DNA of 64,000 nucleotides from Chiloscyllium plagiosum. Taxonomy: Eukaryota. Both the position numbers and the translations under genes were made by a program. The stretch lies in NCBI RefSeq assembly GCF_004010195.1, contig NC_057718.1, positions 45,362,717-45,426,716 on the forward strand. Reading direction: 5' to 3'. The notes beneath the pieces were generated by a model, which worked only from the letters and a program-made list of their open reading frames with translations, was not told where the DNA came from and searched no databases. This document shows, one piece after another, positions 741 to 48,352 of this stretch (the first letter of the stretch is position 1; the number at the start of each line of letters is the position of its first letter).

Positions 741-860
741 CAGGGCTTATGCCCGAAACGTCGATTCTCCTGTTCCCTGGATGCTGCCCGACCTGCTGCG
801 CTTTTCCCGCAACACATTTTCAGCTCTGATCTCCAGCATCTGCAGACCTCACTTTCTCCT
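741..860 (+). mobile_element. 5'-truncated PLE 3' end nested in another PLE
   Basis: Perfect 14 bp TSD caaagttaaaaatc at 727-740 and 861-874; near-identical to 10681-10765. Confidence 0.9.
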
Positions 861-913
861 CAAAGTTAAAAATCACACAACACCGGGTTATAGTCCAATA
901 GGTTTATTTGTGG

Positions 914-948
914 CACTAGCTTTCGAAGCATTGCTCCTTCCTCAGGTG
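914..948 (-). ncRNA. Minimal type I hammerhead ribozyme motif
   Basis: Minus strand reads CAC-CUGAGGA-A-GGAGCAAUGCUUC-GAAA-GCUA-GUG. Confidence 0.75.
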
Positions 949-2267
949 GTTGTGAAGCAGGACCATAAGACATAGAATTTATAGTAAAAGATTACAGTGT
1001 CATGCAACTGAAATGATATGTTGAGCAAAACTAAATTCAGTCTTTCATCTTTTAGAATGGATTTGTTAGTTTTGGTTTTTTAATATTTAAATCCCAGAAC
1101 TTCTTTTACGTCGCATTCTCAAGATAGCTTTAAGTTTTATTACAAAAGATGTCATATCTCAGCTCAGACAATGCATTAAATGTGTGAGGTTAAAGTCTGC
1201 CTGTCTCCCAATCTTGATTCAGACTGGTTCTAAAGTGGAATTTTCACAATATTACATGGATTGACTGCCTGTAGGTTATGTATTTTTTGAGCAAAATAGG
1301 ATGTATATGCAAATATAATTCTGCAAATATAAATTCACCCCATAAACGTGTGTGTGTGTGCACAGGAGAGAGAGAGAGACAGAGTGAATGTGTGTGTGTG
1401 AATGTGAGTACATGTGAGAGAGTGTGTACTTGCGAGTGTGCAAGCTTGGCAAAGTATATGTATGCATGTGTTGAGGTATAAGCTTGTGAGAGGGTACGTG
1501 CATGGGTGAATGTGTGGGGACAATGGGCATCAACACAAAGTGGCCGAGCAGAGACTGATAGCCAAGTTTGGTACCCATGAGGATGGCCTCAAGCGGGTTC
1601 ATGTCACACTACAGGTGACCCCACTGCACTATTTCCCCTCTCCCTCTCTTCTCACTCTCTCTCCTCACTCTCTCACTTTCTCTCACACACACACTTACTT
1701 TCTCACACACTTGTGCAGATCCTCTCTCATATGTACACATGTACACCCCCATACTCACATCCACACAGGCACCTCTCTCAGGCTTATACCCCATCACATC
1801 CACACACATCCTTTACCAAGCTTGTACACATGAAGCATACTCTCACATGCACTCATGCGCACGCACACGTTTATGGGGTGAATTTATATTTGCAGAATTA
1901 TATTTGCGTATACATCCTATTTTGCTCAAAAAAATACATAACCTACAGGCAGTGAATCCATGTAATATTGTGTAAATTCCATTTTAGAACCAGTCTGAGT
2001 CAAAATTGGGAGACAGGCAGACTTTAACCTCACCCCTTTAATGCATTGTTTGAGCTGAGATATGACATCTTATGTTATAAAACTTAAAGCTATCCTGAGA
2101 ATGTGACTTAAAGAAGTTCTGGGATTTATGTATTAATGAACCGAAACTAACAAACCTATTCTAAAAGATGAAAAACTTAATCTAGTTTTGCTCAATATAT
2201 CATTTCAGCTGCATGACACCATAATCTTTTGCTATAAGTTCTATGTTTTATGATCCTGTTTCAGAAT

Positions 2268-2302
2268 CACCTGATGAAGAAGCAGCGCTTCGAAAGCTAG
2301 TG
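2268..2302 (+). ncRNA. Minimal type I hammerhead ribozyme motif
   Basis: CAC-CUGAUGA-A-GAAGC-AGC-GCUUC-GAAA-GCUA-GUG: intact core, 5 bp stem II, stem I CAC/GUG, predicted CUA cleavage triplet. Confidence 0.8.
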
Positions 2303-3609
2303 CCACCAAATAAACCTGTTGGACTATAAACTGGTGTTGTGTGATTTTTAACTTTATTTAATCATTCACTCATTTTGCCGTGTGAGGGGCAGATATTACA
2401 CAGGTTCTTGCAGGGTAGACAACCTATATCCCCACGTTCCTGTCCACGTTAATGTATTAAATGTTGTTGTAATAACATGTTATTTCAATTACTCTTTGAA
2501 ATAATGCCAGAAACATCTCTCTTTATGATGTTGAAATAAGTGGGACGGTTTAAACACAATTTGTTCCATTTAAAACATGCATCCCTAAAGAACTTTGGGG
2601 AAGGTAGGATTGTTTGTGGGTGTTTACAGATGTGTAAGTCGTTACTATAGTGATTCTGTCTGTGTGACATCCTCTACAATGCTGACACAGTGTCTCAACA
2701 ATTTCAAAATATAATTGTTACACAATTGTTTTATATTAGATTGACGTCTTATGAATTACTAGCATTTTGTATTAAAATTTTGCTAGAAGCACCTTGTGAT
2801 TCACTTCTAAACTAATTTTTTCTTGGGTTTTTTCAATGCCAACTCATTCTGGAACCTCACCCAAATGATCATTAATTATGACCTTCAACAAGAAGTATCA
2901 AAATGGCAAGCTGGAGTTCAAGCTTCAAAGCCATTTTAACCAGTACACTATTGGGATGTACTGTGTGATGACAGCGATGCTTTAATCAGCAGAGACCAAG
3001 AAAGAATGGAAGTAACAGACAAGGGAAATGTTACAAATACACTGGTTGGAAGTAATGGAAGTAGAGAATGAGAAAGATGCAGAACATTGGACATGAGAGA
3101 AGAGCAAACATAGAGGTATACAGAGTAATTCAGAAAGGAGACAGCAATGGAGGAAACAGCCAGAATGGAAGAAAAGTGGGGATGGTTATAGGTTTGGAAT
3201 AGTAAAGTGCTATTTGTGTTGACTTTTTTTTTAAAAATAAACAGAATTAAAGTAACATCCTATCAGTCTTTCATTGGTTACCAAGCCAAATGGATCTTGT
3301 CTGTGAATATAGTTGAGAACTAATGTCCTTTACAGTGTATAATAAGAGGGTACAGAACTATCACAGAAAAACCTGATGTTGTTCTTTCCAATATTTCAAA
3401 CAAGCAGATTTTCTAGCACAAGATATTGGCAGTTACTGGACAGCACAGAAATATTACTTGTTTATTTGTTTCTCCTTTCCACGAGTCAGTAGCATTCTGA
3501 ACAAATGTAATTTCATAACTTATTTTTCCAATTAACTTTATGAACAATTGAACTTGAAGCCTTTCAGGTCTGTCTGTCACACCACATAGTCAAATTAGAC
3601 ATTTACTCT

Positions 3610-3740
3610 AAGTTATGAATGGGCAGGGAGCAGAGGGATACAGCCCCTTAGAAAATAGGCAGCAGTTTAGATGAAGGATCTGGATCGGCGCAGGGTTGGA
3701 GGGCCGAAGGGCCTGTTTCTCTGCTGTAATCTTCCATGTT
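3610..3740 (+). mobile_element. CR1-type LINE 3' UTR fragment
   Basis: gggttggagggccgaagggcctgtttctctgctgta resembles the other CR1 tails in the window. Confidence 0.6.
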
Positions 3741-3899
3741 CTTTTCTATTTTCTTTGTTATTCTTTAATTAATACCACAAAGTGAAACAACTGCTGATTC
3801 ACAAATAGCAAATTCTACCCCTTATATTGGAATATGCATTTGGCAAATTTAAGCTGGTTGGAGTGTACTTCAGTCAAAGTATAGGCTCGGTGAGACTGT

Positions 3900-4472
3900 A
3901 AGAAGTGTGAATAGGAGTGGAACTTGCTGGACTTGTGTAAGATAGTAGTTCAGCCTTAGCTGGAATATTATACACTGTTCTGAGCACAGGAAGATTGTGA
4001 ACACGTTAGAGAAGATGCAGGAAAACTTCACAAGAATGTTTCTCGAGACGAGAAACTACAGTTGGGAAGATGAATTGGAAAGGTTAGGACTGTTTTCCTT
4101 GGAGAGGGGAGGGCTAAGAGAAAATTTTATAGAAGCTATCAAAACCATGAGGAAAGTAGATGAAGGAAAATGTTCTCACTCATTAAAGGATTGAGTGGGA
4201 AGGGGCGCAGATTTCGAGTAATTTGCAAATGAAGCAAATGTGATGTGAGAACACTTTTTCGTACAAGTGGTTTGGATCTGCTTTGCATTCCTGTAACTGT
4301 AATGTAAGTAACTCAGTGAGATGTTCAGGCATTATTGATTATTTGAATTAATGGAATGTGCAGGTTACAGGGGAAAGGTAGGAGAATAGCATTAAGCCAT
4401 AACGCCCATTTGGAGAGCCAGTGCAGACACGCTGGGAAAATGGCCTCCTTCTACATCATAATGTTGTGATTG
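3900..4472 (+). mobile_element. CR1 LINE 3' fragment
   Basis: LEKMQENFTRM...LERLGLFSLERGGLRENFIEAIK is a degraded CR1 ORF2 C-terminus, followed by a 3' UTR. Confidence 0.85.
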
Positions 4473-4948
4473 AGTTTGCTAACACAAACTGGCCATCATG
4501 CCTCCAGCATCTAAAGTTTTTTTGGGTTTTTTAAAAATTAAGCATTACCTTTTGAGAGTGCTTATTTGTTTTGACTGTGTGAGAAATTGGACGTTTGCAG
4601 GGGTAGATTGAATAAAATTTGCGTAATGTGGAGATAGGCAACATTGCCAGAAGCAGTTGAACTGTGGAGAAGTTAATGGTAATGAGTGGGGCAAGTACTT
4701 ACCTTGATTGAAGATACAAGGTAAGTGATGAAGGATTGGAATATCAGCAGGAAATGATAGGCTCTAGAGAATTTTGCGTTAGCGACTTTCGTGCAAGAAA
4801 ATATTAGGATGGGGTGCAAGTGTGAAAGATGGAGCTTCAGCCATTAAGGTGAAGAGAATGATGAACAAATAAGTCACGAGAAAAGTTGAAAGTCGTGTAC
4901 AGTTCAAATAGCTGGATTGGAATTTGTGCAAGTTTGAGAACTTCACAT

Positions 4949-5975
4949 GTCATCTGTAGCTCAATTGGCAGCAATCTTGTGGATGAGTCAGAAGGTTATA
5001 GATTCAAGTCCACTCTCAGGGGCAGAATTTGATGCCCTCCGCTTGGGTGATTTTAGTGATGGGTGGGTTAGATCCTGCGACTGTCCCACATTTACCCCAT
5101 ATCAGTCTGTGATGGAGAGATTTGTGGGTGGTGTTCCACCCTGCTTCCAATTGAGGCCGTAAAGTGGGTATTAATTGCTGAATTAAGCCCCAGACTCTAT
5201 GGCTGCTGGTACTAATCTAGCAGTGGGTTAGTGAATCTCTCTGAGGGACGCCTAAGCAGCAAACCCTAGCACTTAATACCACCTGGCGTTGGATCCTGAG
5301 CCATCCTCTCTCTTGTAAACCCCTGCCTTTTGGTTTCCCTCTCCTGCAATTACTAACCTGTGAACCTCTGCAGTTATAATTTTGAAAGAGCAGAAATCAC
5401 CACTTTCTGGGAGCTGTTGTATTGCAACAAAGAATTAGCAGCTGCCAATGGATGGATCATCTGCCTTGATTCCAGAGAAGGCCCTCTGTTGCCCAGTGAA
5501 GTGTCGGATTGCCTCATTCTGTGAAGTCATTAAGTGCAACATGGGACTCTAGCCAACACTCCAGCTGGCTGGCAAGATTTGCTTACGTGAAATGCCACCT
5601 TAAGAATTAAATATAAAAATCAAGTCAACACCCCAGTGATGTACTGAGAGAGTGCTGCACTGTTTGAGGTCTTGTCCTTCAAGTGTTACCTTAACCTGGG
5701 TCCCACTGCTCTCTCAAGTACATGTAACAGATCCAAAGACACCATTTTTAACAAGTGTAAGGTTGTTGGCCAATATTTATCCTTGAGTCAGCCTTCTCAA
5801 AAAACACACAAGCTGATAATTATACCATTTCTGTACATAGGCGTACGCAGTGCCCATATTGGCTACTGTGTCTCCTACATTACAAATGGTGACAATGCTT
5901 CAAAAGTACTGAATTGACTGTAAAGCATTTTGGAACATCCTTAGGTTGTAACAAGTGCTACCCAAATGCAAGTCT
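4949..5975 (+). mobile_element. Deu-domain-like tRNA SINE split by a ~570 bp insertion (about 5019-5585)
   Basis: tRNA-like head (tagctcaattgg...gattcaagtcc) at 4949-5018; body gtactgagagagtgctgcactgt...ggccaatatttatcc and L2-like tail at about 5600-5975. Confidence 0.65.
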
Positions 5976-6204
5976 CACTTTTTAATTCCCCCCCCACCAT
6001 GTGAAAGTTTCTTTCCAAAAGAAGTGGGATGAAACCAAGCAGCAGGTAGTGCTCTAAAATAAGGGGGAGCAACAAAATACAAAGAATTGGATTAGTGTTC
6101 TCCACTATAGGCAGAGCTGAACTTGTGCCAGTTGTCTAACTCTGGGCCAGTTGTCTAACTCCATTTTCTTGTAGAGAAGTGATTGGGGCCAGCAGAATGA
6201 CATG

Positions 6205-6372
6205 CAGTGCTCAAAGTTTGGGAGAAGATTTGTAGCTCGGGTGCTCATTGTTGTGGTTCTGTTTGCCGAGCTGGGAATTTGTGTTGCAGACGTTTCATCC
6301 CCTGTCTAGGTGACATCCTCAGTGCTTGGGAGCCTCCTGTGAAGCGCTTCTGTGATAATTCCTCCAGCATTT
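6205..6372 (-). mobile_element. PLE pLTR fragment (separate family)
   Basis: CpG-retaining segment that carries a hammerhead motif; boundaries approximate. Confidence 0.65.
6285..6325 (-). ncRNA. Minimal type I hammerhead ribozyme motif
   Basis: Minus strand reads GCA-CUGAGGA-U-GUCACC-UAGACA-GGGGAU-GAAA-CGUC-UGC; stem I GCA/UGC, stem II with one mismatch. Confidence 0.75.
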
Positions 6373-6994
6373 AATGCTAGCTGACAGTTACCCTTATTAA
6401 GAGCTCAGTTGTGGCGAACTAGAATTTTCCAGTCTGCTTCCAAGTTCCATATTTGCAGAGACCAGATGAGGTATCTAAACACCAGTAGGCCAGGCTTAAA
6501 GATAAAGGCAATGAGGAGCAGCTCATTCTTAACTTCTGTGCCTGGCTGCTGAAATTGTTCTTTGGTTAAAAGTTTAAGCAAATTTAAGAGAGGTGCTGTT
6601 CTTTTTGAGAACCCTGTGCCCTCCTTACCTTCCATTACAGCCTGACATTCCTCTCAAGTTAGAAGACCTCTCTTGGCCATCCAACTCTGAGACCCCAACT
6701 GCCTTCCTTAATTGGATGTAGAATCTGTCTTCTTACCAGTTAAAAGCATAGCCTTGTTAAAATCCCAATGAATGACTTTTCTCCCATAATGGGAAGTTGG
6801 GCAAGCCCTGGAAAATTTCCCCATCTCTCTCTCCTATTGCCAAAGAGAAATCTAACCCTGAAAGTGGAAATAAAAATACTTAAGTGTAGAAAGTGAAACA
6901 TTGAAACAGGACTAAAATGGAAATGACATTGCAGTTCATACCGCCTCTTTAGTGTTGATAAAAATCTCCCTGCCTTGTGGGTGCCTTTGTATAT

Positions 6995-7690
6995 ATTCAG
7001 ACAGGTGATAGAAAGCTTCTTCAAAGAGATAGGTTTTAAGGAGCAATCCAAGGATGATAAGTTTTAGCGAGAGAATGCCAAGTTTAGTGTCCAGAAAGCT
7101 AATAGCACAACTATTGATAGAGCAGTGTCATAGAGAATACACTGAAGTCCTAACTGAGGAATGCAGAGAACTCAGAGGTGGTCAGATGGAAGAGGTTATG
7201 GAGATGAGGTTATTGAGGAAGTTTGAATGCAAGAAGGAGAACTGTAACATGTGTTGCATTGCTGGAGTACAGCAGTGATTGGCGAGTGGGACTTGAAACA
7301 AGTTTCAATGTAAGGAACAGAGTTTTAGATAAGCTCACCATGCTATGGTCAATGAAAAGCCCAATCACGAGGGTGTTGGAAAAGGTCTGGCTGTAGGTGA
7401 AAGAGCAGAGATGGAGATGGAAGTAGGCAGTTATAGTGTTTGAGAGCATTTGTCATCAGAAACTCAGCTCAATGTCATGTCGGGTGCCAAGGCTACAAAC
7501 CATTTGATTCAGCCTCTCGTCAGTGACCAGAATGAGGGATGAAGTCAGAGGTGAAGGGTTTAAAATACTGATCTTCACCATACTGAATGAGAGGAAATGT
7601 CTACTCTGCTGAGACTAAATGTGAGCTAAACGATCACGATCTGTTTGAGCACAATGGGGGTGAAAGAGGTAATGGTTGAAAACAATACAT
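6995..7690 (-). mobile_element. Old L2-type LINE fragment
   Basis: Purine-rich decayed sequence resembling 58130-59040. Confidence 0.45.
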
Positions 7691-9411
7691 TGTGCCATTA
7701 AGAAAGTCCATATAATGGAAGCAAGAAGTTTAGAGAGAAAAATGTAACTGGATTGACTTGAAAACAAATGCTAGAGAAACGCATAGCAGCTGTGATTTAG
7801 AAGTGGAAACACTGAACCCAGGAATTAAAAGAAAACCGACGTTTGCTTGCAAGCTTGAAACACTAGTAGCCAGTTTTGAGAAAGGAGAAAATAAAAATCA
7901 AGAATAGTAAGAAAGTATAGAATGAGGGAAAGACAAGCACAAAGAAATAAGAAAAAACAAATGTCAGGAATAAGAATAATAGAAGCTACTGTGATAGATG
8001 CAGACTTCGATAACTGCAACAGATTGGAGGTCACAGCTGAAATACCCAACTTACATATGAAGGTGAAACCCAAGTCCAAGTCCTTGCAAACAAAGAATGC
8101 ATTTAACCTTGCACAGGTAGATTTTAGCGTCTGTTTGCACCCAGCATTACATAAAAAGCTTTACCTTTTTAAAATCTGATATTAACTGCTTCCAACAGTT
8201 CTTGCATCAATTAAAAACAATCTCAGGCTGATAATGTGATCCTATAAAAATAAATTAGAAGCGCATGACTGTGCTACCTGTTAATGTGTTTAGATAATGG
8301 AGTAAGATTACATAAAGAATTCACAGGGAATGAGTTGGAAATACTTTAATGGATTGCATAATAAAACACCAGAAAGGAACCTTTCAAATGGAACTATATT
8401 TATTTACAATTAAGGTCCCAGAGTAGTCAGAGTAGTCTAACTTTATGTAGAATCACAAAAGTGTAGCCAACGTAATCCTATCTGTATCTTAACGTAAGTA
8501 TGTTCTACCAACTGTCTGCCAAAATCAGCAGCAACAATATTTTTAGGTCACCAATATCTTCCTACACTTACCTAATGAAATGTTACCATTACCCTACATC
8601 AAAGCTTCAGTCAATCAGCCCAGCACTGGCTCAGGATTTTGTTTTCTAGTACAGTATTTGAGGTGGGGGAGGGGGGAAGGAAAATCAGCATTTAGGAGCT
8701 GACTATGATATGTCCCATTAAACTTTTGCCTTTAACCATTTTTCCATGAGTGCTGGTAAAATGTTGGCTGTGGGGTAAAAGTCAAATGCTGTGGCTGACT
8801 TAGCCAGAGTGCTGATGGGACATACTGTAAGATATAATTGACATCAATAAGCCTTGTAGTAGATATCGTCAAAAGGAATTTCCAATGCCTTAAAGTTTGG
8901 CTGACTTGTAATACGAAAAATGAACTATTGCCAGATTTCTAATAGTTTCAGCTAATTGTATTTTGGTTATTAGTTTCTGGGAGACAACTGGCTATGAAGC
9001 TGACTTTTTACCATTATTATCCACTGAGGCAAGAAGTCTCAAATATATAGGGTGAATAGTTTTTGGGGCAGCATTTCCATTCTCCTTAAACAGCAGAAAA
9101 GCGTGTTAAAGAGCAATGAGGCTCCCTTGTTCTTAAAGAGGCCTGAGGAGGTGGCAACAGGAAATGAGTGGGAAGACCTTGCAGTTGAGAAAGGAATGCA
9201 GTCAGTACAGAAGTAAGTCTCGTTTGGACAAGTGAGGGAGAGCATGTTAGGTCAGAGGGGAGTTGATGTAGCACAGAAAGTTACAACATCATCCTATTTC
9301 TATCTCTGACTTAGATATATCTTAAAAGGTAGAACAAGGTCTCGAATAAAAAGAAGGCTCAAAAGACCCAATTTAGTTATTCTTTAAATTTCCAAAGAGC
9401 ATCACCGTCAA

Positions 9412-9752: not shown

Positions 9753-10120
9753 TCCATAATGTTGCTGATGATTGAGAATAGACTGATGGACTGGCAATTG
9801 ATCGGGTTAAATTTGCTTCAGTTTTTGTGGACAGAACATATCTGAGCAGTTTTCCATATTATCTAGTAGCTGCCCTGGAACAGTTTGGCTTGGGATACAG
9901 TTAGTTCTGGAGCACAATTCATTGGTACTACTGCTGAGTCCAAAGCCTTTGGAGTATTCAGTGCCTTCGGCCATTTTGTAATATCATGTGGAATGAATTG
10001 AATGGGCTGAAGGCTGGCATCTGTGATACTAGCAACCTGAGGAGGAGGCCAAGATGGGATCATTTCCTTAGAACAGCTGACTGAACATGATTGTAAATGT
10101 TCAGCCTGTCTTTGTCTTGA
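9753..10120 (-). mobile_element. CR1/L2-clade LINE fragment
   Basis: Reverse complement resembles 39620-40230 (e.g. KALDS...CAPEL...LFQGSY). Confidence 0.65.
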
Positions 10121-10148
10121 AATTGCAAACTGGGGCTGTGTATAAATT

Positions 10149-10761
10149 CACCTGCACCTCCACAGATATCATCTATTGCATCCGCTGCACCCGATGTGGC
10201 CCTCTCTATATTGGGGAGACAGGCCGCCTACTTTCGGAACATTTCAGAGAACACCTCTGGGACACCCGGACCAACCAACCCAACCACCCCGTAGCCCAAC
10301 ACTTTAACTCCCCCTCCCACTCCACCAAGGACATGCAGGTCCTTGGACTCCTCCACCGCCAGACCATGGCAACACGACGGTTGGAGGAAGAGCGCCTCAT
10401 CTTCTGCCTGGGAACCCTCCAACCACGAGGGATGAACTCAGATTTCTCCAGTTTCCTCATTTCCCCTCCCCCCACCTTGTCTCAGTCAAATCCCTCGAAC
10501 TCAGCACCGCCTTCCTAACCTGTAATCCTCTTCCTGACCTCTCCGCCCCCACCTCACTCCGGCCTATCACCCTCACCTTGACCTCCCTCCACCTATCGCA
10601 TTTCCAACGCCCCTCCCCCAAGTCCCTCCTCCCTACCTTTTATTTTAGCCTGCTGGACAAACTTTCCTCATTCCTGAAGAAGGGCTTATGCCCGAAACGT
10701 CGATTCTCCTGTTCCTTGGATGCTGCCTGACCTGCTGCGCTTTTCCAGCAACACATTTTCA
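10149..10761 (+). mobile_element. Young 5'-truncated Penelope-like element (GIY-YIG end plus pLTR)
   Basis: Open frame FTCTSTDIIYCIRCTRCGPLYIGETGRLLSEHFREH...RRLEEERLIFCLGTLQPRGMN; perfect 14 bp TSD gctgtgtataaatt at 10135-10148 and 10762-10775. Confidence 0.93.
10671..10704 (+). ncRNA. Minimal type I hammerhead ribozyme motif
   Basis: UUC-CUGAAGA-A-GGGC-UUAU-GCCC-GAAA-CGUC-GAU; intact core, GUC triplet, weak stem I. Confidence 0.8.
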
Positions 10762-11407
10762 GCTGTGTATAAATTAGGCCATACAAAGAGAACAAAAAAT
10801 ATGTAATAAACAGGTTATTCTGCACTCAGTTTTCCTTGTAGTGTACAATTTAAAGACACTTTAAAAAAAAATTGTTGAACTTGACTTTTGCCCATTGGAC
10901 AGTTCGCGGGGTAAACCTGTAGAAAGAGAGTACATGAAAATACTAAAAATTGTAATCACAGTTCATTTGAAATCCTGCTCACCAGTTCATTAGTTGAAAT
11001 AACTGAGATTGTTTTGAGAAATATGCAAGATTTTGGCTTCTACTTTGAAGGAAGTCAGTTTCTGCCTGGTATTGTCACTGTTTTCATGTCTTTATCACAT
11101 GAAGAACCAATCTGCTCAGTGATGCATCAGAAATTACTCTATTTCTGGAAAGTAAAGAGAATCTTGTATATAATCTGCTCTTGATTTAAAACCCTTTAAA
11201 TTATCCAGAGATTATTTTTTCAGCAGTAGATTATTTCTTTGTTGTGTCATTGCATATTTACTTCAAATTATTTAATTTCATGAGGAAATGACTTCAAATT
11301 AATACAAATAAACTATATGTTGTGAATCTTTTTGTTTTCCTGTTTAGTGATTCTTAGGGTTGTGGAAATACTTGGTTGACATATAACTCTCTTGTTTCTT
11401 CCACCAG

Positions 11408-11577
11408 ACTCATTATTTTGGACTGTGGTTCCTCAGTAAGACTCAACAGGGTCGATGGGTGGAGCTAGAAAAAGCCCTGAAAAAACAACTAGACAAATTT
11501 GCCAATGAGCCTCTCCTCTTCTTTGGAGTGATGTTCTACGTGCCCAGTGTCTCGAGACTTCAGCAAGAAGTCACAAG
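11408..11577 (+). CDS. PTPN14: PTPN14 internal coding exon, FERM domain (170 bp)
   Basis: Acceptor tttcttccaccag, donor ag|gtacag. Translates [56 protein letters not shown](R), matching the PTPN14 FERM N-lobe as recalled. Ends in phase 2. Confidence 0.95.
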
Positions 11578-12429
11578 GTACAGAAAACTAACAAGCATTT
11601 TTCTCCTAGTATCCCATAAATTGAGACAGAAATGATCTTAAGGAAGAATTCCGAGGTTTCAGAATTTTTCATCCCTCAAAAGTATACAATTTGTGAGATA
11701 AAAAGATAACTGTGAATACTAAAGTAAAAGTTTTAAAATGCTTGAAATTACAAACATTTCTTCATTTTACTGACATTTTAGTGCAAGATCTTTTATCAAT
11801 CTGTTTCAGGGTCAAATTTAAAACGCAATGTTTTTTTCTCTTCTGAATATTGAATGATTTGCTGTACATTTCAAAAACATCAATGGAACATCTATTTTAG
11901 TAGTGCTGTTGCATACATGCTGTTGAACAAGTATTAATGCAGCAAGCAAATCGGACAAGAGAGGAATATGTGTGACATGGAGGAAATTACGTGGGCTGTG
12001 TTTGAATGTGAGGAGTTAGGTAATAAGGTGAAGTGTTGAGGATAGGAGTTAGTTTCCAATGTGTGCATTTACGATGATGTAAACTAAAACACTTGGATGC
12101 GTAGTTCTTTTGCATCTTTGGTATATTTACTTTTCAAATATATTTACTTTCCTGTCTCTTTTCAAATTAAATCATACTTTAAAAGCATCTGATGAAGGGA
12201 AATTTCAGATAGTATTTCATGTTGGATGCACTTTTGGATTTTTGAACATTTCAAGTGTTTGTGTATAAAATGCAACATTTTGAAACATTCACAGTAAATT
12301 CAAGTGGTCATGCATGATTTCAATAACTCTTAAAATTCTGTTACACTACTGAGATTTACAAAGTATTTGTGTTTAGGCCTAGCTGCTCTTTCTCAATATT
12401 TATGGTTCACATAATCCTCTTCGTACATT

Positions 12430-13850: not shown

Positions 13851-13959
13851 ATAGCTCAACTTCATCTATCTCAACATGATTCTTTTTCTTTTAGTGTTTT
13901 TTTTTCCTTCTTCTGAAACAATTCATTGCAATGGTTCCATTCTTCTAGTTCCAGCGCTT

Positions 13960-16928: not shown

Positions 16929-17070
16929 GAAAGCAAAAACTGATGGAGAGTCATCTAGACTCAAAATAATAGCTTATTCTCTCTCCACTGATACTGCCTG
17001 ACCCGCTGTGATTTCCATGACTTTTTGTTTTGGGTACAGATTCCAGCACCTGCAGTAATTTGCTCTTAGG
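16929..17070 (+). mobile_element. PLE 3' fragment with decayed hammerhead
   Basis: TSD atactatgtt at 16919-16928 and 17071-17080; ctgatgg-a-gagtc-atcta-gactc-aaaa has a mutated core. Confidence 0.7.
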
Positions 17071-20000: not shown

Positions 20001-20277
20001 AGTCTGACTTGTATACTTGCAGCATTTTTTATTTTTATTTCAGATTTCCAGCATTTGTCTTGCCAATCATTTACAATATAGTGTTGCAGGAATCACCAAA
20101 GGAACAGCAGTATAGAGAAAAACAAAACGTGGAGACACCAAAAGGCACATTTTATGGGGAGCATGACAACATGTATTATAATTCGTAGAATTGGACCTTA
20201 ATGATCCCACGGCCCATTTAAATTCTCCAAGTTCATCTGTGTATTGCCCTAATCCTGTTAGGGACTCACTCTTAATT

Positions 20278-20404
20278 TAAAACCAAAATACTGTGGATGC
20301 TGCAAATCTAAATTAAGAACAAAGAAACTCAGCAGACCTGGCAGCATCCATGAGGAGAGAAAAAGAGTTAACATTTCGAATGCTGTATGACTGTTCTTTG
20401 AAAT
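20278..20404 (-). mobile_element. PLE 3' fragment with decayed hammerhead
   Basis: Reverse complement resembles 45175-45310 and 48225-48350. Confidence 0.6.
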
Positions 20405-26690: not shown

Positions 26691-26832
26691 TTTGTGCTCA
26701 AAAGTAGAATGTAGCTGCACTCGAGATCTATCCTTTCCTGTTATCCTCATTTTTCATCAAACTAATATTTGCATACGACTAAACAATTGCTATCAGCATC
26801 AATATGATCACACCACTATCTCTATCCCTCCA

Positions 26833-26900
26833 TGATTCGGAGATGCCGGTGTTGGACTGGGATGTACAAAGTTGCTGGTGTTGTGTGATTTTTAACTTTG
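26833..26900. mobile_element. 68 bp fold-back PLE terminus
   Basis: Perfect 12 bp TSD tctatccctcca at 26821-26832 and 26901-26912; content matches 698-733 joined to 2331-2355. Confidence 0.85.
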
Positions 26901-27766
26901 TCTATCCCTCCAGGTTTAGGACTCTGTGATAATTTTATCCATTTTCCCATCACGCTGTCACCTGGTCTCCCTTTATCAGGCACTTTCTTATGCAAGTATA
27001 GAACCTACAGCACTTAGTCATCACAGTCTCAGCACTGCAAGGTTCCAAATACACTTGGATGAGACATCATTATGCTTGCATTTATTCCAGTGCTCACTTT
27101 GCAGTCTGCTTACTGGGCTTTGTACTTCGTAACGTCTGCCCAACAATTGCCTTTTGTCCTTCTTAGGTGCTCAAAAATCAGCATGAGAGACATTTGCAGT
27201 AGAGCTTTTTGAATTTTTGTGTAAGATATGAGGAAAAGTATTATCAATATGCTTTGATTAGAGGGTGCTTTGCTTGGATTTTGAAAGGATGCATTGTTGG
27301 ACTAAAGATTGTTTTGTGATAGGCACTTCAACAATGTCACAGAAATAAACTAATGAGTGTTGAATTTACTTAGGATGTGTTAAGGAGGAGGCTGTAGTGA
27401 AGCATATTTGTTGCTTAACAGGAACAAGGACATAGAGCTGTTGACTGCTAGTATCAATAAAATAGGGACTAAAATAAAGATTGGTTCACTGCCAAAAGAA
27501 AGTGAGAAATGTTTATTGTCTGTTAAGGAATGCAATAAAAGTGCCAATAAGGTTTCTGTAAATCTGCAACTAAACCCTGAATAAACAAAGTTTATGAAGA
27601 GTTTTAAGGAGAAATGCATTCAATACCCGTTTTCACCTAAAACACTCATAATTATTATCTATTCAAGATTTAAATTCTACACATAACACTTCTCCTCAAA
27701 AATATTCTATTAGAGTTTAGGAAATGTAAAGATAGTATGGTGCTCTAGTTGCACCATTCAATATTA

Positions 27767-32291: not shown

Positions 32292-32296
<5 letters not shown>

Positions 32297-36790: not shown

Positions 36791-37185
36791 TTTCAGAAGG
36801 TGAAAGGATTGGTTTAACATTGAAAAGGTTTCTCTGCTTCACATGTGAAAGGTGTGTATGAGAGAGAGAGAGAAAATGGAGATTGCTGAAAAGGGTGACA
36901 TGTTGTCAAGGATTTTCATCTTGAGCACATCAGTGCAAATGGAAGAATATCAAATTTGAAATTATCCCTAAAATCTTATTCCTGTGAATCACCTTTCTGT
37001 CAAAAGTGCCTCCACCAATACATGTGCAAGGGAGATGAGCCTTGCACTGCTGACACCATGGTTTCTATCTGACCGTGTTTAAAACTGTCCCCTGTTTTTA
37101 AATAGCTACAGCATATTGAGCACTGCACTATTTAATTTCCCTTATATGCAGTGGCAGTAAACCTATGAGTAGTAGTATTACCACT

Positions 37186-37395
37186 ACCTATCGCACTGTC
37201 AGCTACCTTCCCCCCAGCCCCACCCCCTTCCCATTTATCTCACCACCCCTTTGGCTCACAGCCTCATTCCTGATGAAGGGCTTTTGCCCGAAACATCAAT
37301 TCTCCTGCTCCTCAGATGCTACCTGACCTGCTGTGCTTTTCCAGCACCACACTCTTGACTCTAATCTCCAGCATCTGCAGTCCTCACTTTTGCCC
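37186..37395 (+). mobile_element. PLE pLTR fragment
   Basis: Perfect 12 bp TSD agtattaccact at 37174-37185 and 37396-37407; related to 10590-10761. Confidence 0.9.
37267..37300 (+). ncRNA. Minimal hammerhead ribozyme motif (stem III mutated)
   Basis: CUGAUGA-A-GGGC-UUUU-GCCC-GAAA-CAUC-AAU; CGUCG has decayed to CAUCA. Confidence 0.65.
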
Positions 37396-39856
37396 AGTAT
37401 TACCACTCCAGCTTGTTCTGTCCAGCAAGTTACAAACTTGAGAGGAAAACAGGTTGAATGAGTGCCCCGTTTGGCACTAGTTGTTTGAAAGGAGTAAAAT
37501 TGAGCCCAGTTACATTCTTATACAATTGGGTATAGAAGCAAGTTTGTTGAATAATTAGGCAAGAGTGATCATAGTAATAGATTGCCATTATTACATTAAC
37601 TAAAAGCTGAAATGAGAATCCATTATAATTTCAAATCTTCAGAAAGGCTAACATTACTCAAGTTTGGGAAAACTTCAATCATATCACTCCCATTGAATTA
37701 GGCTGGGATAGTTCCAGTCCCTTAAAAAATATGAATACAGGCATAGTCCTACAAATCCAGCATGCTTGTAAATGAGACAGTGGCGGATTTGGATATACAT
37801 CATTTATATTTGGGTAGTTTGGGCCAAGGTCAATTTGAGTCACCTTGTGGTGGGGTGGGGTTAACTGTGACTTGGAGTGTGGAGAGTGGCAAACCTGTAA
37901 CCAGTCTGAAACCACACCAATGCAATACTTAACTGGATTGTTCAGGTTTGTTATTTCTTTTAAATTTTATTTAATTAAAAATTGGTGCATTGAATACTAT
38001 AAAAATGTCAGGTTCTCAGACACTGCTAGGTAACCCTATTTGAGGTATCTTAGCTGTACCTTTTATAAAAAAGCATATTACAGTAAAAGGAGGCCACGTA
38101 TATCTCTTCGTCTAGAATTTCCTTCGTTAAATTTAATGCTGAGACTTGTGCCAAAGGAAACCTGAGGCTAAATTTCCTGCAAAGCATATTTGCCTACAAG
38201 ACATTAAATTCTGTATTAAAGTAAGCGCAACCTCAGTGTCAGCAATAGAGGTAACAGTGATGGACTGCTGTTGTCTTCCTTGACATCTCACTCTGTCTCT
38301 GCTGCTTCTCTTTCCCCGTTTTCATTATTATGTAGACCGAAGCATTTCACTTAGACCATACTAGTTGCTTAGTTCTTTGAAAGTGCAGGGATGATGGTGA
38401 CCAGAAAAAGTTCAGATATGTCAAAATTCATTACACTTTGGTTAAAAATAGAAAAGGTTTCAGTCACAAAACATCAGTGAATATAATGATGTTAAAAACG
38501 CTATCAAACTGTGTTACGTACAGTGTTACACCTAAAATATGAGTGTACATGTGTGCAAGCAAATTCTTGAATTTGTACCAGTAAAGTCATGCAAGTTGCA
38601 TTTTTGCCTGAGCAAAGTGTAATGTTATGTTAGTGACCAAGAGAAGCTTTAGGCAAACATGTATGGAGGTAAAGCAAAAGTTTAAAGAAACTCACATGTA
38701 GCGGCACAAAGTGGTATTGACAGAACTGGGAAACTGTGCTTTCCCAGTAGTTAATAAATAGACCTAAGGAGCAAGTTTTCAGTTTGTGCAATGAATATGG
38801 ATTTGCAGCTGCATACCTTCATAAGAGCACTGGTCAGCTCACAATTAAGGCAGAGAAAATAGGATACAGAATTCATTAGCGGGGAGCTACAAATTTATAG
38901 AAATTGTGGCCAATGTGGTGGGCTATCTCAGGAAGCTTTATGATAGTTCTACTACTGACCAAATTGGCCAAGACTAATATACATAGTTTGTAGACTGGGT
39001 TTATAGCAGTGGTGAGGAAACCAAAAATAATGAGAAACCTACTTTGAACATGCTCACAAAACTGTTGTCATAGATGTCTCTGTTAATGACAATGTTGGTA
39101 GGAGAGACCATGAAATGAAATGAAAGGAAATGAATCCTCATCTTCACATTGAGGATCCCCTCCATCATGTTGTGAGACAATGTCACTGTGCTCAGTCGGA
39201 TAGATTCAGAACAAATCTAGTAACTCAAAACTGGACATACATGAGGCACTGTGGACCATTAGCAACAGATTTGCATTCAACGACAGTCTGGAGCCATTGC
39301 CACCAAGCTAGGAGATCAACCGTGTTCAAGCAAAAGTGCAGGAGCTTCACCCGGCATAGAAATGGAGTGTCCGACTTGTGTAACTACGACAAAGGATAAC
39401 TTGCACACTAAACAGCACAAGCAACATGCATTGGGCAAGGATCGGCAATCCCACAATCAAAAGCAGTTCTGCACACTTGATTGTGAATGGTGATAGATAA
39501 TTAAACAATCAACAGGGGGAGCAAGTTCCATAAATATCCCCATCCTCAGTGAAGAGCAAAGCCCAGCGTATCCAATGTAAAAGATAAGACAGAAATATTT
39601 GCATCCATATCCGGAAGGAAATGCCAAGGTTATGATCCAATTTGACCTCCTCCTAAATGTCCCAGCATCAGAGATGCTAGTCTACAGCCAAGTTAATTCA
39701 CATGACATCAAGAAATATCTGATACTAGGTACTGCAAAGGCTTCAGACAGCATTCCAACAAGAATACTGAAGGCTTGTACTCCAGAACTACTGTTCCTGG
39801 CCAACCTGTTCCAATACAGCTACAACACTGGCAGGTATTGACAGTGTTTAAAATTG

Positions 39857-40071
39857 GAAGGAGAAAGTGAGGACTGCATATGCTGGAGATCAGAGTCAAA
39901 CAGTGTGGTGCTGGAAAAGCACAGCTGGTCAGGCAGCATCCGATGATTAGGAGAGTCAACGTTTTGAGCGTATTCCTGATGAAGAGCTTATGTTTGAAAT
40001 GTCAACTCTCTGCTCCTCAAATGTTGCCTGACCGGCTGTGCTTTTCCAGCACCATACTTTTTGATTCTGAA
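39857..40071. mobile_element. Fold-back PLE pLTR with central decayed hammerhead
   Basis: TSD tgtttaaaattg (39845-39856) / tgttgaaaattg (40072-40083); inverted arms tggtgctggaaaagcacagc / gctgtgcttttccagcacca; CUGAUGA at 39976. Confidence 0.85.
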
Positions 40072-41834: not shown

Positions 41835-42182
41835 AGGAGGTGATGGCCTAGTGGCATTATCACTAGATATTAATCCAGAGTGACCCAGGACATGTTCAGG
41901 GGAGTCGGATTCAAGTACTGCCATGGCAGATGATGAAAGTCAAATTCGATGAGAATCTGGAATTAAGACTCTATAATGGTGACCATGAAATCATTGTCCA
42001 TTGCTGTTTAATGACATCTGATGCACTAATGTCCTTTGGGAAAGGCAATCTGCCATCCTTACCTAGTCTGGCCTACATTTGACTCTAGACCCACAGCAAC
42101 CTGGTTGACTTTCAACTCCTCTCTGGGCAATCCATGATGCTATAAATGCAGAGATGCCCACAACCCATGAATGAATTTTTAA
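41835..42182 (+). mobile_element. tRNA-derived SINE
   Basis: Same family as 9412-9752. Confidence 0.75.
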
Positions 42183-44429
42183 AAATGTACAGGGACTTCT
42201 CTCCAGCTGACCTATTATTGACAAGAACAGGATCACCAACCAGTTTTCTTCCAGGTTATGGTGTGTGTTTACATGCATGATGCTTGCTATTGGAAGCTAA
42301 CCTGCCCCATACTTCAGGTCAATATTTCTTCATCTCGCAGTTGTCCAGTCACTTGGAGATTTGGAAGTGTAACGGAGGCTGCAACTTCTTTTTTCCCCTC
42401 CTCTCGCATATTGCACAATAATTTTACTTTTCAACACCTGAAGTTAAATGTAAAGTGAAATGAATTTTGATTAAAGGAAAAACTTGTACAAAGTGACTTC
42501 AATGATTCCCTCCTTTGAAGGTTTATTTATGCCCAGTCAGCAGTTTGAAGTGATATTAAAGCTGTAAAGTTAAAGAGCTGGTATCAGCAGACTAATGAAA
42601 GCTGGAACGCATGTTGTCCCACAGTGTAAGAGCGAAGAAGCCTCCCAGCTATGGATACATTCCGCAATTCCCATCCCCCACCTCTGTTTGCCTTATGAGG
42701 AGGAGGACGATGAGATCCATGTAATTACAGCTTTGTTCAGGCATGTTATCAGAACCTTGTCAATCATGTATGTAAACACTAACCAAGGACATCATCCTTA
42801 AACCAAGATTCTGATTAGCAGTTCAAACACCCAGCGCTTTGTTTGGGCTGTCTTGTGTACATTTTAAATACTTCACATTCAGTATGTTATAATGGCCACT
42901 TATTACTTTTATGAGTTTTTTTTTACTTTGTGTTTAAGGGATACTTGTTAATGTGTTCTAATCTGTGTCAAATGGCTATAGGCTCAGACATTTTAATGGT
43001 GGTGAAGTTTTCTATGTTTGCCACTATTACTCTGAAACTGACAACAACTCCTGGCGTATGCAGTTGTTCAATAAAATTTGGAAATCCAGAAGTTGTTGTC
43101 ATTAGTTCCTTGTTTTCCAACCGGGAAAACATTTTGACACCCTCCCAGATGGAGATCTTAGAAATCACTTATTTTGAAATGAACTTCACACATGCTGTTT
43201 GTCACCAAAATGCAAAGGAAAAGGTTAACATTTATTGAAACATACTGGAATTTTAACAGCATTATAAGTCATAATTATTTTTCAACAGCCTCTCTGGCCC
43301 TGAAAAAAACTGATTTTACACTGTGATGTGTCAAATATCCTCACTGTGACAAAAAAAATTGATTTTTAAAAAAACTTTACTTTGAAGTAGATGATATCTG
43401 TTTCCGTGTTAGTCCCATACATATGTCCCAGTCCTATGTTGCTACTTCTAAAATGATTAAAGAGTGAAGGATAATCAGTGCACTTCTACTTCCTGATCCT
43501 GAGCCCTCACCCTCTAACTACCCACCCAGCCCCCCGAAACACTGTTCATGAAATGAACTTAATGATAGAAAAGTTGAGATCCATGCCAGAGACATTGTTG
43601 GATTTTTGAGGGTTGGTGTCAACCTTGATCATAAGTTCTGGTTCTCAATTCATTTCTGTGTTCAGGGAATATTGTTGTTTAAGCGAATCAGTTGAAATAA
43701 GCACTAAAATAATATTACTTAAGTAGAAAAATTGGATGGTGTTAGTATCTAAGAACGGTGTAATTAAACTCAAATGATTCAGGAGTTTTAATAGATTTTA
43801 CCCTCAACATATGCAATGCTACAGAACAGAAATTAACAAAGAAATGAGTACAGGCCAAAGAATGGATATATTTATCAAAAGAAATTATGGACAAATCAAA
43901 TAACACTCTAGTTAAACTGTTCATATAGATATTCGTACATTGGAAGTAGTCCTGAGAATCATAATTGTAATTCCTATTGTCTGAGACATAGAATTTTTGT
44001 TTAATAGCAGAGAAAATGTGATTTAGGAGATTTTATAGAAGCATATAAGATGTTAAACAACAAAAAAGAGGTTGAAAACCCAAAAAAATGTGATTTTATG
44101 AAATTTTAATTAACAGTCATTAGTTAATATAAATAATCATGATATTTTTCAAATCTGGTAGATCGTCTTGACCTGAAATATTTCCACTGACCAGATGCTG
44201 ACCTGCTGAGTATTTCCAGCAGCTTTTCTTTTTATTTTGGAATTCCAACATCACCACTATTTGGCTTTTGGTCACCAAAGTCTCCTCCAGGTCCCACTAC
44301 CTTGTGGGACATCCTGCCTCACATGCTGAACAGCATGGATTGATAATTGGCCAGTTAAGTCATGTAAAGACCCATGGCAGAAATTCACAATCTTGAGTAG
44401 ACATCAAAATGAGCTGACAGAAGTGAAAA

Positions 44430-44610
44430 TTGCTATGCTCACAGAGGACCAAAGATGACTGGTTAAATATGAGGGCCACCACGCCTCAGGAAAGGTTGAG
44501 AATTTGGGCCTTCAAGGTGACCTCAGCTGGTGCAGAAACTGAACTGTGCTGTTGGGATCATTCAGTATTACAAACCAGCCAACCTGCCAACTGAAATAAC
44601 CAAATCCTCC
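44430..44610 (-). mobile_element. tRNA-derived SINE
   Basis: Reverse complement resembles 27767-27965. Confidence 0.6.
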
Positions 44611-45173
44611 ATCTTCATATTGCACATTTTAATTCTGCAGGGTTCCTTAGCAATGGTGTCCTTTTGAATGCTTTCTCCTTTTGATGCAATAAACAGTCAC
44701 AAAGATGAAATTCTGTTCGAATGCATCCTGAATTTGGCATCCTTTAGATTCATAGAATCCCTACAGTGCAAATAGAAGCAATTTGGCCCATCATGTCTAC
44801 ACCGACCCTCTGAAGACCAACTAAAATACCCTGCTCGAAGCAAAATCAGCAAACTTCCCTTAACCTTTCATCTTACTCTATTTCCTCTCAGATGCACACA
44901 CCCCACCTTAAATCCTACCGCTTCCTATGGCTTTGAATTGGATGAAGACAGTGCCTCATTTAGCTTTTAGCAGAGGTTAGCTGATATATATGGCTGGAAA
45001 TTTCATGCAATATATGATTTGTTAAAATGAAAAGCTATCACCTATTATTCAATAATTTCTGAATATACTAATAGACAATACAGTGCAGTTTTGTGTATAA
45101 ATAATGGAAGAATAACTGAGAGAAATTGTGCTGGCTTAAGTCTTGGATTTCAGTAAATGGAAGGCAGTGCTGC

Positions 45174-45310
45174 ATTCTGACAAAGGGTCACTGGACTCGA
45201 AACATTAACTGTGGTTGTTCTTTCTACAGATGGTGCCAGACCAGTTGAGTGTCTCCAGCACTTTGTTTTTGTTTCAGATTTCCAGGAACCACAGTTCTTT
45301 GTTTTATTTT
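45174..45310 (+). mobile_element. PLE 3' fragment with variant hammerhead
   Basis: CUGACAA-A-GGGUC-ACUG-GACUC-GAAA-CAUUA; core G8 position is A. Confidence 0.65.
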
Positions 45311-45548
45311 TGCGTAACTAACACATGGACTGACAATCCTGCAACTTGGTAGTATTTGTATTGTAATTGTTCTGTATTTTTTAAAAAATGAATGTGTTAG
45401 TGCCACACTATGGTATGTAAAGTAATTCTTAGTGATAACAATCAGTGAAAGCACATTTCTAAAGGAACAATAGTGTTTAGCAACAACATGTTACAGCATA
45501 AGGTGGCTCTTTGTTTGGTCTTGGCAAGCAACCATCAACATAACTGTA

Positions 45549-45754
45549 CAGTCGGTTCTGATATAACGCGATAGTCCCATGCGTTATAAGAAAGTCGTGC
45601 AATAGCCACACCATTTAAACTAATGGAGCCGGAATTGCATTATAGCCAATACAGGTAAAGAAAGTTCATATTCTATAAATAACAATCTAAATTCTTCAAT
45701 CATGTTTAAAGCCAATTCGCATTGAAGAAACACACTTTATAGCAGAACTGACTG
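45549..45754. mobile_element. Tigger/pogo-like MITE (second family)
   Basis: TA flanks; TIR cagtcggttctgatataa / ttatagcagaactgactg. Confidence 0.85.
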
Positions 45755-46641
45755 TATCTCCGTGTAAATGGTCTCACTGTTTAAAAATTAGATCTGAACA
45801 TTGGACTTATTACAAATATTAGTGTAGCTTTGTGGAGAAAATATCTTTCTTCCAATATTGTTTTAAAACTTGTTTGGTGGTAAATATTTATTGACAACCG
45901 GAGTCCATTTGTTTATCCAATATCCTCAGGTAATAAACCTTTATATTAACATGTGGAAAACAGCATTTTTGTCCCCCTTTGATGTTCCTCCTAATTGTTG
46001 AGAAATTCTTTTGAAGCAGGTGACTTGTGCTCAGGCTAGCAATGGTCTGCTACCTTGACAAAGTTGATTGATTTATTTACTTGTTGTCATGTGTATCGAA
46101 GTACAGTGAAAAACTTTGTTCACAAGACAGACAGGTCATAGTAAGCAAGGATGTACAGCTCTTCAGGCATTGTTCATGCTTGGAATACCATTTAATTGTA
46201 TGTGTTGGGAAATGAGGTTGAAATTAACATTGAGCTAAATATCCCCTTGTCCATTTCTCTCTATAAAGTTTACATGTTCCTGCACATATAAAGTTCACAA
46301 GCGGGAGCCCCATGTCTTTCTTCCTCCAATAAATGCCACTTGTGTTGAAACACATGTTAAGGTCAGTTTCCCAAAATAACTGAGTTTAAAAGTACCTTGA
46401 TTGCTCATTTCTTTGCATTGCAGACTGAACCACATGGAAACTCTTAAATGCACACAGTTTCCTTGCTTTATTCTTTGCTGGTTTTCATTACGAATCTATT
46501 GGTCTCCACAACCAAGAGTTGTCCAAAGTAAAATTGCAAATTGTCGCGTGTCTAATTTTGTATTTAGGAGATGGTATTTAATTTACGCAATAAAATGGGT
46601 CGATACCACTTTATGAAAATGTTCTCTATTCATTATTTTAG

Positions 46642-46739
46642 GTATCAGTATTACCTGCAAGTAAAGAAAGATGTGCTTGATGGACGGCTTCCTTGTACAT
46701 TAGAGCAAGGCATTCGGCTAGCTGGTTTAGCTGTGCAAG
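46642..46739 (+). CDS. PTPN14: PTPN14 internal coding exon, FERM domain (98 bp)
   Basis: Acceptor cattattttag, donor g|gtaagt. (R)[32 protein letters not shown](A); the first G completes the AG codon left by the previous exon. Confidence 0.95.
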
Positions 46740-48224
46740 GTAAGTGTACAATGGCAGAGTCTTTGTCTTTCTGTTTATGCTGCTCTGGGAAACTGTTGCT
46801 CTTGTGTATACTCTGAACTTTAGTCACACAGCAAGGCAAATGTGACTTTGATATCTGTGAATGTAGTCACAGGACTTCTTTTAACTCAGGACCACCATCA
46901 CCTTGAAAACCAGTTCAGGTGATGAACTCTCAGTGAAACAAATTACTTTGTAAGAGCTAGAACTGACACACTGTTCCAAAGACTAGTGTTTGTTATTATA
47001 TACTCCATTTATTGGTACAAGACCAGCCATTGAATAAATGATCAATAACACAACATTATGGACCACATGGGCTGGATTAATTGCTGGCGGACTTCCAGAA
47101 GGACATCCTAGCTACCAGTTGGAGGTCAGCAGCTCTCTGCTACATGTCTCAGTAACCGTGACTTGGAATGGTAAGATGCCTGGAAGGAGGAAGAAACATG
47201 GTTGCCCCCACTCAAGGAAAATCCCAGGTTGTGATGTGGGCAGATGAGCAGATACCAGCGAGGGTCTTGTTGATGGGGTGGGAGGACGGTGGTGGGCAAG
47301 GAAAACCTGTTGGGGAAAGGTCTCAGATTGACACAAGGGACCCAGGAAGGAGATAACCCCCCACCCCTTGCACTGATCAGCATCTTGCAGGGTTAACCTA
47401 GCTGGCTGTACGTTGGACACCAACCTTTCATGTCACGTGTTAATTCTGGGTTGTGTCAGAAAAAGGCCCTTAGGTGGCCACTAACTGAACCAATTGGAGC
47501 CTCAATTCAGACTTGGGTGAATGAGCAGCAGACTTTCCAAATTTATGGGTTTGGATAGCTCGTAAAATTCACTTCACCTTCTGGATGCTTGATTTTTTTC
47601 CCTAGTGTGCATTCTTCCTGTGTATACCTCTGCTGTAAATGGTGGCAGTCTGCTGTAGTAGAGGCATTCACTCTACTCAGCATACCTATGGGTACAGTCA
47701 CATATATGTTTTCCTGTTTCTAGTTCCCTTTCAGTAAATATTGAAGGGAAATTTGGGTTAATTTTCTTACTTCCTAGCTCAGTCACTCTATACATTTATA
47801 CTGCCATGTTTACACTTGGCCTATACCAAGAATCAAATCTCAGATTCACTTCCTGTGGAAACATATTTATTAAACAATCTACCTCCCACATTTGTGACTT
47901 CAGGAGGAATGTGGGATGTTGTCCACTATAAATGTTGATGAAAACTTCATCTAAAACCTGCAGGTACTTTTACATTTCTAAAGCAATCCTGAGAGGTTTC
48001 TGCCATCAATTGTCCTATTCAATGTGGCTTTGTTCTTCAATTTTTTTTGAAGATGTATTGAGATTTAGTTCTGTTGGTGGACATAAACAAGCAGCTTCAA
48101 TCATATATCAGTTCTGGCATTGCCATTTTCCTGGAAATAAATCTAGACAAGTCGGTGTGGATTTGTTGGGCCGAATGTCCTGTTTGCACACTGTAGAGAT
48201 TCAGTGATTCTATCTGTATAAAAA

Positions 48225-48352
48225 TTCTGAAGAAGAGTCATGGTAGACTCAGAGTCTCTGTCTTTCTCAACAGGTGCTGCCATATTCACTCAACTCCTCC
48301 TCTGCCTTCTGTATTTTTATTTCAGATCGCCAGTATCTGTAGTATTTTTTTG
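48225..48352 (+). mobile_element. PLE 3' fragment with truncated hammerhead
   Basis: CUGAAGA-A-GAGUC-AUGGUA-GACUC with GAAA lost; tail resembles 45230-45310. Confidence 0.6.

Follow-up and report, generated by a model that had tools for sequence, protein, structure and literature searches.

Here, we analysed a 64,000-nucleotide stretch of the genome of the shark Chiloscyllium plagiosum (contig NC_057718.1, positions 45,362,717 to 45,426,716; hereafter the window), which lies within the gene PTPN14 and in which hammerhead ribozyme motifs had been named at eleven places. We consider it highly probable that these sites are 3'-end remnants of Penelope-like elements (PLEs) with the known minimal hammerhead ribozyme (min-HHR), that they occur at an ordinary density and in either direction, and that they are likely inert toward the host pre-mRNA. 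Their PLE origin is shown by an endonuclease remnant, by target-site duplications and by fold-back insertions.

Hammerhead cores in the introns of PTPN14

The host gene is PTPN14 of a cartilaginous fish, read from the plus strand. Three of its exons lie within the window, where they were located by short peptide motifs and then by Pfam:

11408..11577, plus strand: PTPN14 exon, FERM_N (Pfam, peptide identity, tblastn)
46642..46739, plus strand: PTPN14 exon, FERM_M (Pfam, tblastn)
57194..57261, plus strand: PTPN14 exon (tblastn)

For the exon at 11408, the encoded peptide shows 100% identity with PTPN14-like proteins from two cartilaginous fishes, while its best solved relative is PTPN21, with many more substitutions in the alignment. 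A tblastn search with protein P0003 placed the first coding exon (residues 1-64) some 20.7 kb ahead of the window and the remainder, through the protein tyrosine phosphatase (PTP) domain, across the 70 kb that follow the window's exons, all on the plus strand. Every hammerhead motif is therefore intronic, and the plus strand is the sense strand. The intron between the two FERM exons (11578-46641) is 35 kb long. Sequencing reads gave no support for splicing across the intron that carries intact sense cores.

A canonical hammerhead descriptor recovered only 39976 among the named sites, because one extra base sits between A9 and stem II. Indeed, a single unpaired A or U between A9 and 10.1 is present in all four families described below. 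When this base was allowed (CUGANGA, one extra base, stem II, GAAA), both boxes were found at six of the eleven sites, with C3 at 945(-), 2271(+), 6322(-), 10674(+), 37270(+) and 39976(+); in 300 dinucleotide shuffles, the same pattern turned up 0.37 times on average and at most 4 times. The coordinates of the original prediction are the low ends of the motifs. A strict descriptor of the complete minimal hammerhead, in which the stem III pair and UH must also be present and stem I must reach 2 bp or more, left four sites, two in sense (2271+, 10674+) and two in antisense (945-, 6322-):

914..948 (C3 = 945), minus strand: intact min-HHR of family B, antisense to PTPN14 (descriptor scan)
2268..2302 (C3 = 2271), plus strand: intact min-HHR of family B, sense, predicted to be in duplex with the 914-948 copy (descriptor scan, folding)
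6286-6325 (C3 = 6322), minus strand: intact min-HHR of family C, antisense (descriptor scan)
10672..10703 (C3 = 10674), plus strand: intact min-HHR of family A, sense (descriptor scan, folding)

Six sites had been put forward as intact, which holds for these four but not for 37270, with a C-A pair in stem III, or 39976, with G-U at 10.1-11.1, both of which lack stem I. Five more had been called decayed or partial, and so they are: 741 is truncated and has no CUGANGA, and 16940, about 20370, 45177 and 48227 have lost core bases. Broken copies thus make up seven of the eleven named sites. A scan with hammerhead models had been proposed as a check; an Rfam search of the window at E<=10 returned seven weak unrelated matches and no hammerhead, and it was the descriptors with the extra base that found the six and the four.

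The 945 core combines stem I CAC/GUG, stem II GGAGC/GCUUC and the stem III palindrome AGCU, with a predicted cut at 917|916; that of 2271 is predicted at 2299|2300. The 6322 core has stem I GCA/UGC and a G10.1-U11.1 wobble, as does 39976 at this pair, whereas 945, 2271, 10674 and 37270 have G-C. In the 10674 core, a 2-bp stem I, stem II GGGC/GCCC and the palindrome ACGU would place the cut at 10701|10702, 706 nt upstream of the next exon. Stem III is palindromic and without a helix III loop throughout (ACGU in families A, C and D, AGCU in B), and stem I is UC/GA in A, CAC/GUG in B, GCA/UGC in C and up to 4-6 bp in some D copies. Stem II differs between families and yet pairs (GGGC/GCCC, GGAGC/GCUCC, GUCACC/GGGGAC, GGGUC/GACCC, GAGUC/GACUC), and the variants quoted beforehand were correct. 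All three stems covary between families, and we infer from this that selection acting on the transposon preserved the motif.

How do such cores decay? The required positions of family A hold three CpGs (11.1-12, 15.2-16.2 and 17-1.1). Among 167 aligned copies scored at 20 positions, 42 were unchanged, 46 had CpG transitions only, 60 had CpG transitions plus other changes and 19 had other changes only. CpG transitions numbered 191 at 6 positions, versus 110 other substitutions over all 20, and 106 of the 167 copies carry one, so that CpG sites account for most of the decay in this family. The pattern fits 37270, where two CpG-type changes break stem III and stem I, and 39976. Methylation-driven deamination is the likely cause of this CpG decay in family A.

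Penelope-like relics that carry the cores

To define families A, B, C, D1 and D2, we drew on 40 other loci of the same genome; the resulting profiles recovered all eleven named sites as relics of the pseudo-long terminal repeats (pLTRs) of four or five PLE families, together with an unlisted inverted arm at 39859-39970:

690..740, minus strand: family B pLTR end and tail, split from its arm by the 741 insertion (profile)
741..860, plus strand: family A pLTR stub, 5'-truncated at stem II, keeping GAAA-CGUC (profile, alignment)
862..1356, minus strand: inverted arm of the family B fold-back (inverted-repeat alignment, profile)
1510..2355, plus strand: family B 3' fragment, then pLTR arm (inverted-repeat alignment)
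6195..6362, minus strand: family C pLTR relic (profile)
10149..10761, plus strand: family A 3'-terminal PLE fragment, a GIY-YIG endonuclease remnant followed by the pLTR (profile, protein relatives)
16939..17069, plus strand: family D2 pLTR relic, core decayed with A9, G12 and stem III lost (profile)
20274..20398, minus strand: family D-type pLTR relic, 5' core lost (profile)
37186..37395, plus strand: family A pLTR stub (profile)
39859..40071, both strands: short family A fold-back with arms at 39859-39970 (minus) and 39953-40071 (plus) (profile, folding)
45174..45307, plus strand: family D1 pLTR relic, core decayed with G8 and stem III lost (profile)
48219..48347, plus strand: family D-type pLTR relic, GAAA box lost (weak profile match, E about 1e-3)

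The insertion at 10149-10761 is 613 nt long, is flanked by a 14-bp target-site duplication (10135-10148 / 10762-10775) and is 92% identical over 551 nt to another copy. A GIY-YIG remnant (10144-10485) lies directly upstream of the 10674 core, and the 5' part of the insertion shows 53-89% identity to the C-terminus of four GIY-YIG proteins, two of which also contain RVT_1. Pfam gave no match on the window's endonuclease remnant, and its identity rests on these relatives. Judged by its sequence, the insertion is the end of a PLE open reading frame followed by its pLTR.

The 945 and 2271 cores are the two arms of one fold-back insertion, the 497-bp arm at 862..1356 being 90.7% complementary to 1860-2355. 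This inverted repeat (862-2355) is predicted to form long double-stranded RNA in the pre-mRNA, a possible substrate for A-to-I editing. The 741 stub interrupts the family B inverted arm between 14-bp direct repeats (727-740 / 861-874), and since this family A stub is nested in the family B fold-back with its 14-bp duplication, the A copy is younger than the B copy. A 12-bp duplication (37174-37185 / 37396-37407) likewise flanks 37186..37395. In the short fold-back at 39859..40071 the decayed 39976 core is predicted to be buried within the hairpin. The region around 1530-1600 resembles, by eye, the C-terminus of a PLE endonuclease, with no Pfam match. Families B to D are assigned to PLEs by anatomy and cross-matching profiles only, no search having given a protein tie. 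Two more pLTR fragments without a core lie at 26824-26907 (a family B tail with a small inversion) and 44191-44265 (a D/A-type 3' remnant).

In every sequence feature, the window motifs match the published min-HHR of PLE pLTRs (PMC4209133), with which they share the type I topology, the absence of a helix III loop, the palindromic 15.2-16.2, the one extra base between A9 and 10.1, and G10.1-C11.1. Also shared are the presence of several consensus families per genome, mostly as lone truncated copies, and of opposite-strand pairs about 100-700 bp apart. The shark stems are shorter than those of the schistosome min-HHR (stem I 2-4 bp, up to 4-6 bp in some D copies; stem II 4-6 bp), and copies are roughly tenfold more numerous than the 4,000-9,000 given for coelacanth and Xenopus, a comparison across differing search methods (PMC4209133). 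Anatomy, profiles and exon mapping thus bear out the view that the PTPN14 introns contain hammerheads of the minimal type I form, which come from the pLTRs of four or more PLE families, and that the motifs at all eleven places are real. An inverted, 5'-truncated pLTR with a 30-40 bp tail has been described for endonuclease-containing (EN+) PLEs of the Neptune/Nematis type (PMC8557442), and the window's fold-backs with a tail at one end (690-2355 and 39859-40071) resemble it; unlike those elements, the window holds only 3' PLE fragments, with no reverse transcriptase. A feature of the Neptune/Nematis clade was seen by eye in the family A relatives P0122 and P0123, in a region missing from the window copy. 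The survey text we consulted (Cervera and De la Pena 2014, PMC4209133) mentions no shark, and we found no study of shark PLE hammerheads in the literature outside subscription journals and the supplements of that survey, which may list sharks; the shark families may thus be members, so far undescribed, of an established kind.

Folding, partners and RNA ends

Can the few intact sense cores cut? For 2271+, the antisense arm lies upstream and is transcribed first, and pairing with it is predicted to cover 94% of the sense arm and to take in the core. Folding thus predicts that this copy is held, together with its antisense counterpart, in a 497-bp fold-back. The closest intact sense core of family B, 3.1 kb upstream and outside the window, also sits within a fold-back of its own. 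About 700-1430 nt before the window (L048:8573-9290) there is another family B fold-back, which shares 75% identity with the window's; its sense core has a weakened stem II, passes the strict descriptor and is also predicted to lie in a duplex. Among the 93 intact cores of the gene-body sample introduced below, 58 have an opposite-strand family match within 3 kb, which lies upstream in 53 of the 58, and the median spacing of inverted pairs is 362 bp.

The other sense copy, 10674+, folds with a stem II probability of at least 0.88 and a stem I probability of at most 0.012. It has no intact partner nearby, its same-family sense neighbours being truncated (741, 9.9 kb away) or decayed (37270), and from the sequences a dimer with a family B copy would mismatch in stems I and III. 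No tandem array runs over any hammerhead motif in the window, and no intact same-family, same-strand pair lies inside it. By nearest-neighbour energies alone, the best alternative dimer of each of the four intact copies is more stable than the active-dimer fold by 9-11 kcal/mol, and the active dimer is no better than two monomers. The motifs had been presented as a set of potential cleavage sites; this view is not supported, since seven of the eleven are broken and, of the two sense copies that are intact, one is predicted to be shielded and the other to lack a partner.

When 4 sequencing runs were aligned to 9800-12200, X19 gave 1,780 reads, of which 95% continue into unlike sequence and therefore come from other copies; X20 gave 0 reads. 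Molecule ends in X19 showed no pile-up, including at 10701|10702, in a fragmented polyA single-cell library that is blind to 5'-OH ends. Earlier work reported no cleavage for single min-HHR and low cleavage for dimers and trimers (PMC4209133). The hammerhead of the Anolis Poseidon element PAc, which likewise lies in the pLTR of a vertebrate PLE and is equally minimal, cut only with added protein, and no RNA-seq reads started or ended at its site (PMC11167929). PAc has been assayed, its cleavage being dispensable for insertion in vitro, whereas the shark families are known from sequence. Going by the folding predictions and these published assays, the few intact cores likely leave the host RNA uncut.

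We infer that in the living element the hammerhead likely acts as a dimer to process tandem PLE transcripts, perhaps aided by the element's protein. After a lone truncated insertion, the copy would have no adjacent partner and a stem I of only 2-3 bp; it would often be trapped by its own inverted arm, and then decay neutrally.

Abundance, orientation and competing explanations

Genome-wide (3.56 Gb), we counted 97,632 exact core matches (A 70,555, B 15,971, C 10,513, D 593), evenly spread across both contig strands, with 0 in reversed-pattern controls. This count predicts 1.76 exact cores per 64 kb versus 4 in the window, which stem from three insertions, two of the four cores being one insertion; moreover, the patterns for B and C had been drawn up so as to match the copies in the window. 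Our second yardstick was a sample of 32 gene bodies with strand assigned by same-strand Pfam exon matches (1,807,267 bases, 60,992 of them N), which takes in the window and may contain nested antisense genes. It holds 3.3 intact cores and 18.7 relics per 64 kb, and its 15 full bins range over 0-8 intact cores and 7-28 relics. The window, with 4 intact cores and 11-12 relics, is therefore of ordinary density, and the claim of a dense set is not supported.

The motifs had also been described as mostly in sense. This is so when decayed copies are counted (8 of 11; by hand calculation, two-sided binomial p = 0.23) but not for the intact ones (2 of 4). The proposed test for an orientation bias, run on the 32 gene bodies, gave 47 sense and 46 antisense intact cores (ratio 95% interval 0.67-1.57), or 41 and 43 without PTPN14, and so lends no support to a sense bias. 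All relics divided 242/268 (p = 0.27), the intact share was 47/160 in sense versus 46/185 in antisense (p = 0.39), and unshielded intact cores, those not paired with an inverted arm, divided 21/26. Family A exact cores numbered 19 in sense and 14 in antisense versus 17.9 expected per strand, and non-CpG core damage in this family was not higher in sense (25/852 versus 33/799). Control repeats in the same gene bodies were unskewed by strand (96/98, 23/29, 2/4, 73/91).

Several points weigh against the reading as inert PLE remnants. Family A core positions vary less than the flank (3-4% versus 6%), although base composition, subfamily structure or profile ascertainment could account for this. 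The folding energies ignore tertiary contacts and proteins. Of the 93 intact cores, 46 have a core-spanning antisense partner, and since inverted pairs force strand symmetry, the orientation test is diluted; the gene sample is unable to exclude a depletion below about one third. Xenopus retrozymes were reported to be under-represented in introns (bioRxiv 10.64898/2026.07.22.740005). These animal non-LTR retrozymes are PLE-derived and hammerhead-bearing like the shark relics; they are head-to-tail tandem repeats, whereas the window has no hammerhead tandem array. Finally, core-spanning copies of family C are skewed, with 12 in sense and 29 in antisense (p = 0.012); its unshielded cores divide 4/18 in the first sample (p = 0.004) and 5/18 when pooled (p = 0.011), and its shielded cores 8/11.

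We give an outside chance to the explanation that some families, foremost C, cut pre-mRNA as trans dimers or with PLE protein, enough for selection to purge unshielded sense copies from genes while those paired with an inverted arm survive. The pooled skew next to the shielded ratio, the 3-bp G/C-rich stem I and long stem II of family C, and the protein-aided cleavage described for a PLE hammerhead (PMC11167929) all speak for it. However, the shielded/unshielded split was chosen post hoc and is one among 8 cells tested, and only a single core-spanning copy of family C (1 sense, 0 antisense) came from an independent 110-kb DST-like sample, too few for a skew test. The unshielded skew is larger among decayed (2/11) than intact (3/7) copies and absent from families A and B, the active dimer of C is predicted to be no more stable than those of A or B, and an insertion preference, or a splice or polyadenylation signal, could produce the same skew. 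The window's own family C copy cannot cut PTPN14 RNA, because it is antisense. We therefore treat the family C skew as a lead only. Where a family C inverted pair had one arm truncated, the arm with the core nearly always ran antisense to the gene (about 8 to 0 by eye), and the sole such pair of the new sample was opposite.

It is most improbable that the 10674 copy now serves PTPN14 by adjusting its splicing or its transcript level, co-opted in the manner of the conserved intronic hammerheads of amniotes. Its core is intact, in sense, without inverted partner and near a 3' splice site, and domesticated intronic hammerheads exist (RECK and others, PMC6155905), which are likewise type I, intronic and probably retroelement-derived. 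Those, however, are single conserved orthologous sites with canonical helices I-III and tertiary contacts, whereas the shark copies are multicopy, young or decaying, and minimal, without helix III and with a stem I of 2-3 bp. The 10674 copy itself, with a 2-bp stem I, is a young truncated insertion with an intact target-site duplication and a 92% identical copy, one among 70,555 exact cores, and its same-family sense neighbours are truncated or decayed. Chance matches to a short pattern, to which the silence of the Rfam hammerhead models might point, are refuted by shuffle and genome counts (four strict matches versus a mean of 0.003 and a maximum of 1 in 300 dinucleotide shuffles; tens of thousands of family copies with empty reversed controls), and the endonuclease remnant directly upstream of 10674 speaks against them as well.

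Elsewhere in the window, we noted a minisatellite-like GC-rich array at 49825-50083 (units GCTGCTGCC), a 34-bp inverted repeat (94%) with a 10-nt loop at 61912-61989, outside the hammerhead families, and, on the sense strand of an intron at 52836-52926 (+), a weak C/D-box-like match to snoZ30a (25.8 bits against a cut-off of 80, E = 0.088) that is probably due to chance.

What, then, do these relics mean? For PTPN14 itself, the motifs are very probably of no consequence. If the purging of family C were true, it would provide genomic evidence of a metazoan PLE hammerhead active in vivo, and fold-back insertion and CpG decay would be means by which the hammerhead is neutralised. On the preferred reading as inert PLE remnants, about 10^5 exact cores lie in one vertebrate genome, several per long gene and in sense as often as in antisense. 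These numbers suggest that pre-mRNA tolerates lone PLE min-hammerheads without harm. Such harmlessness bears on the question of what PLE hammerheads do.

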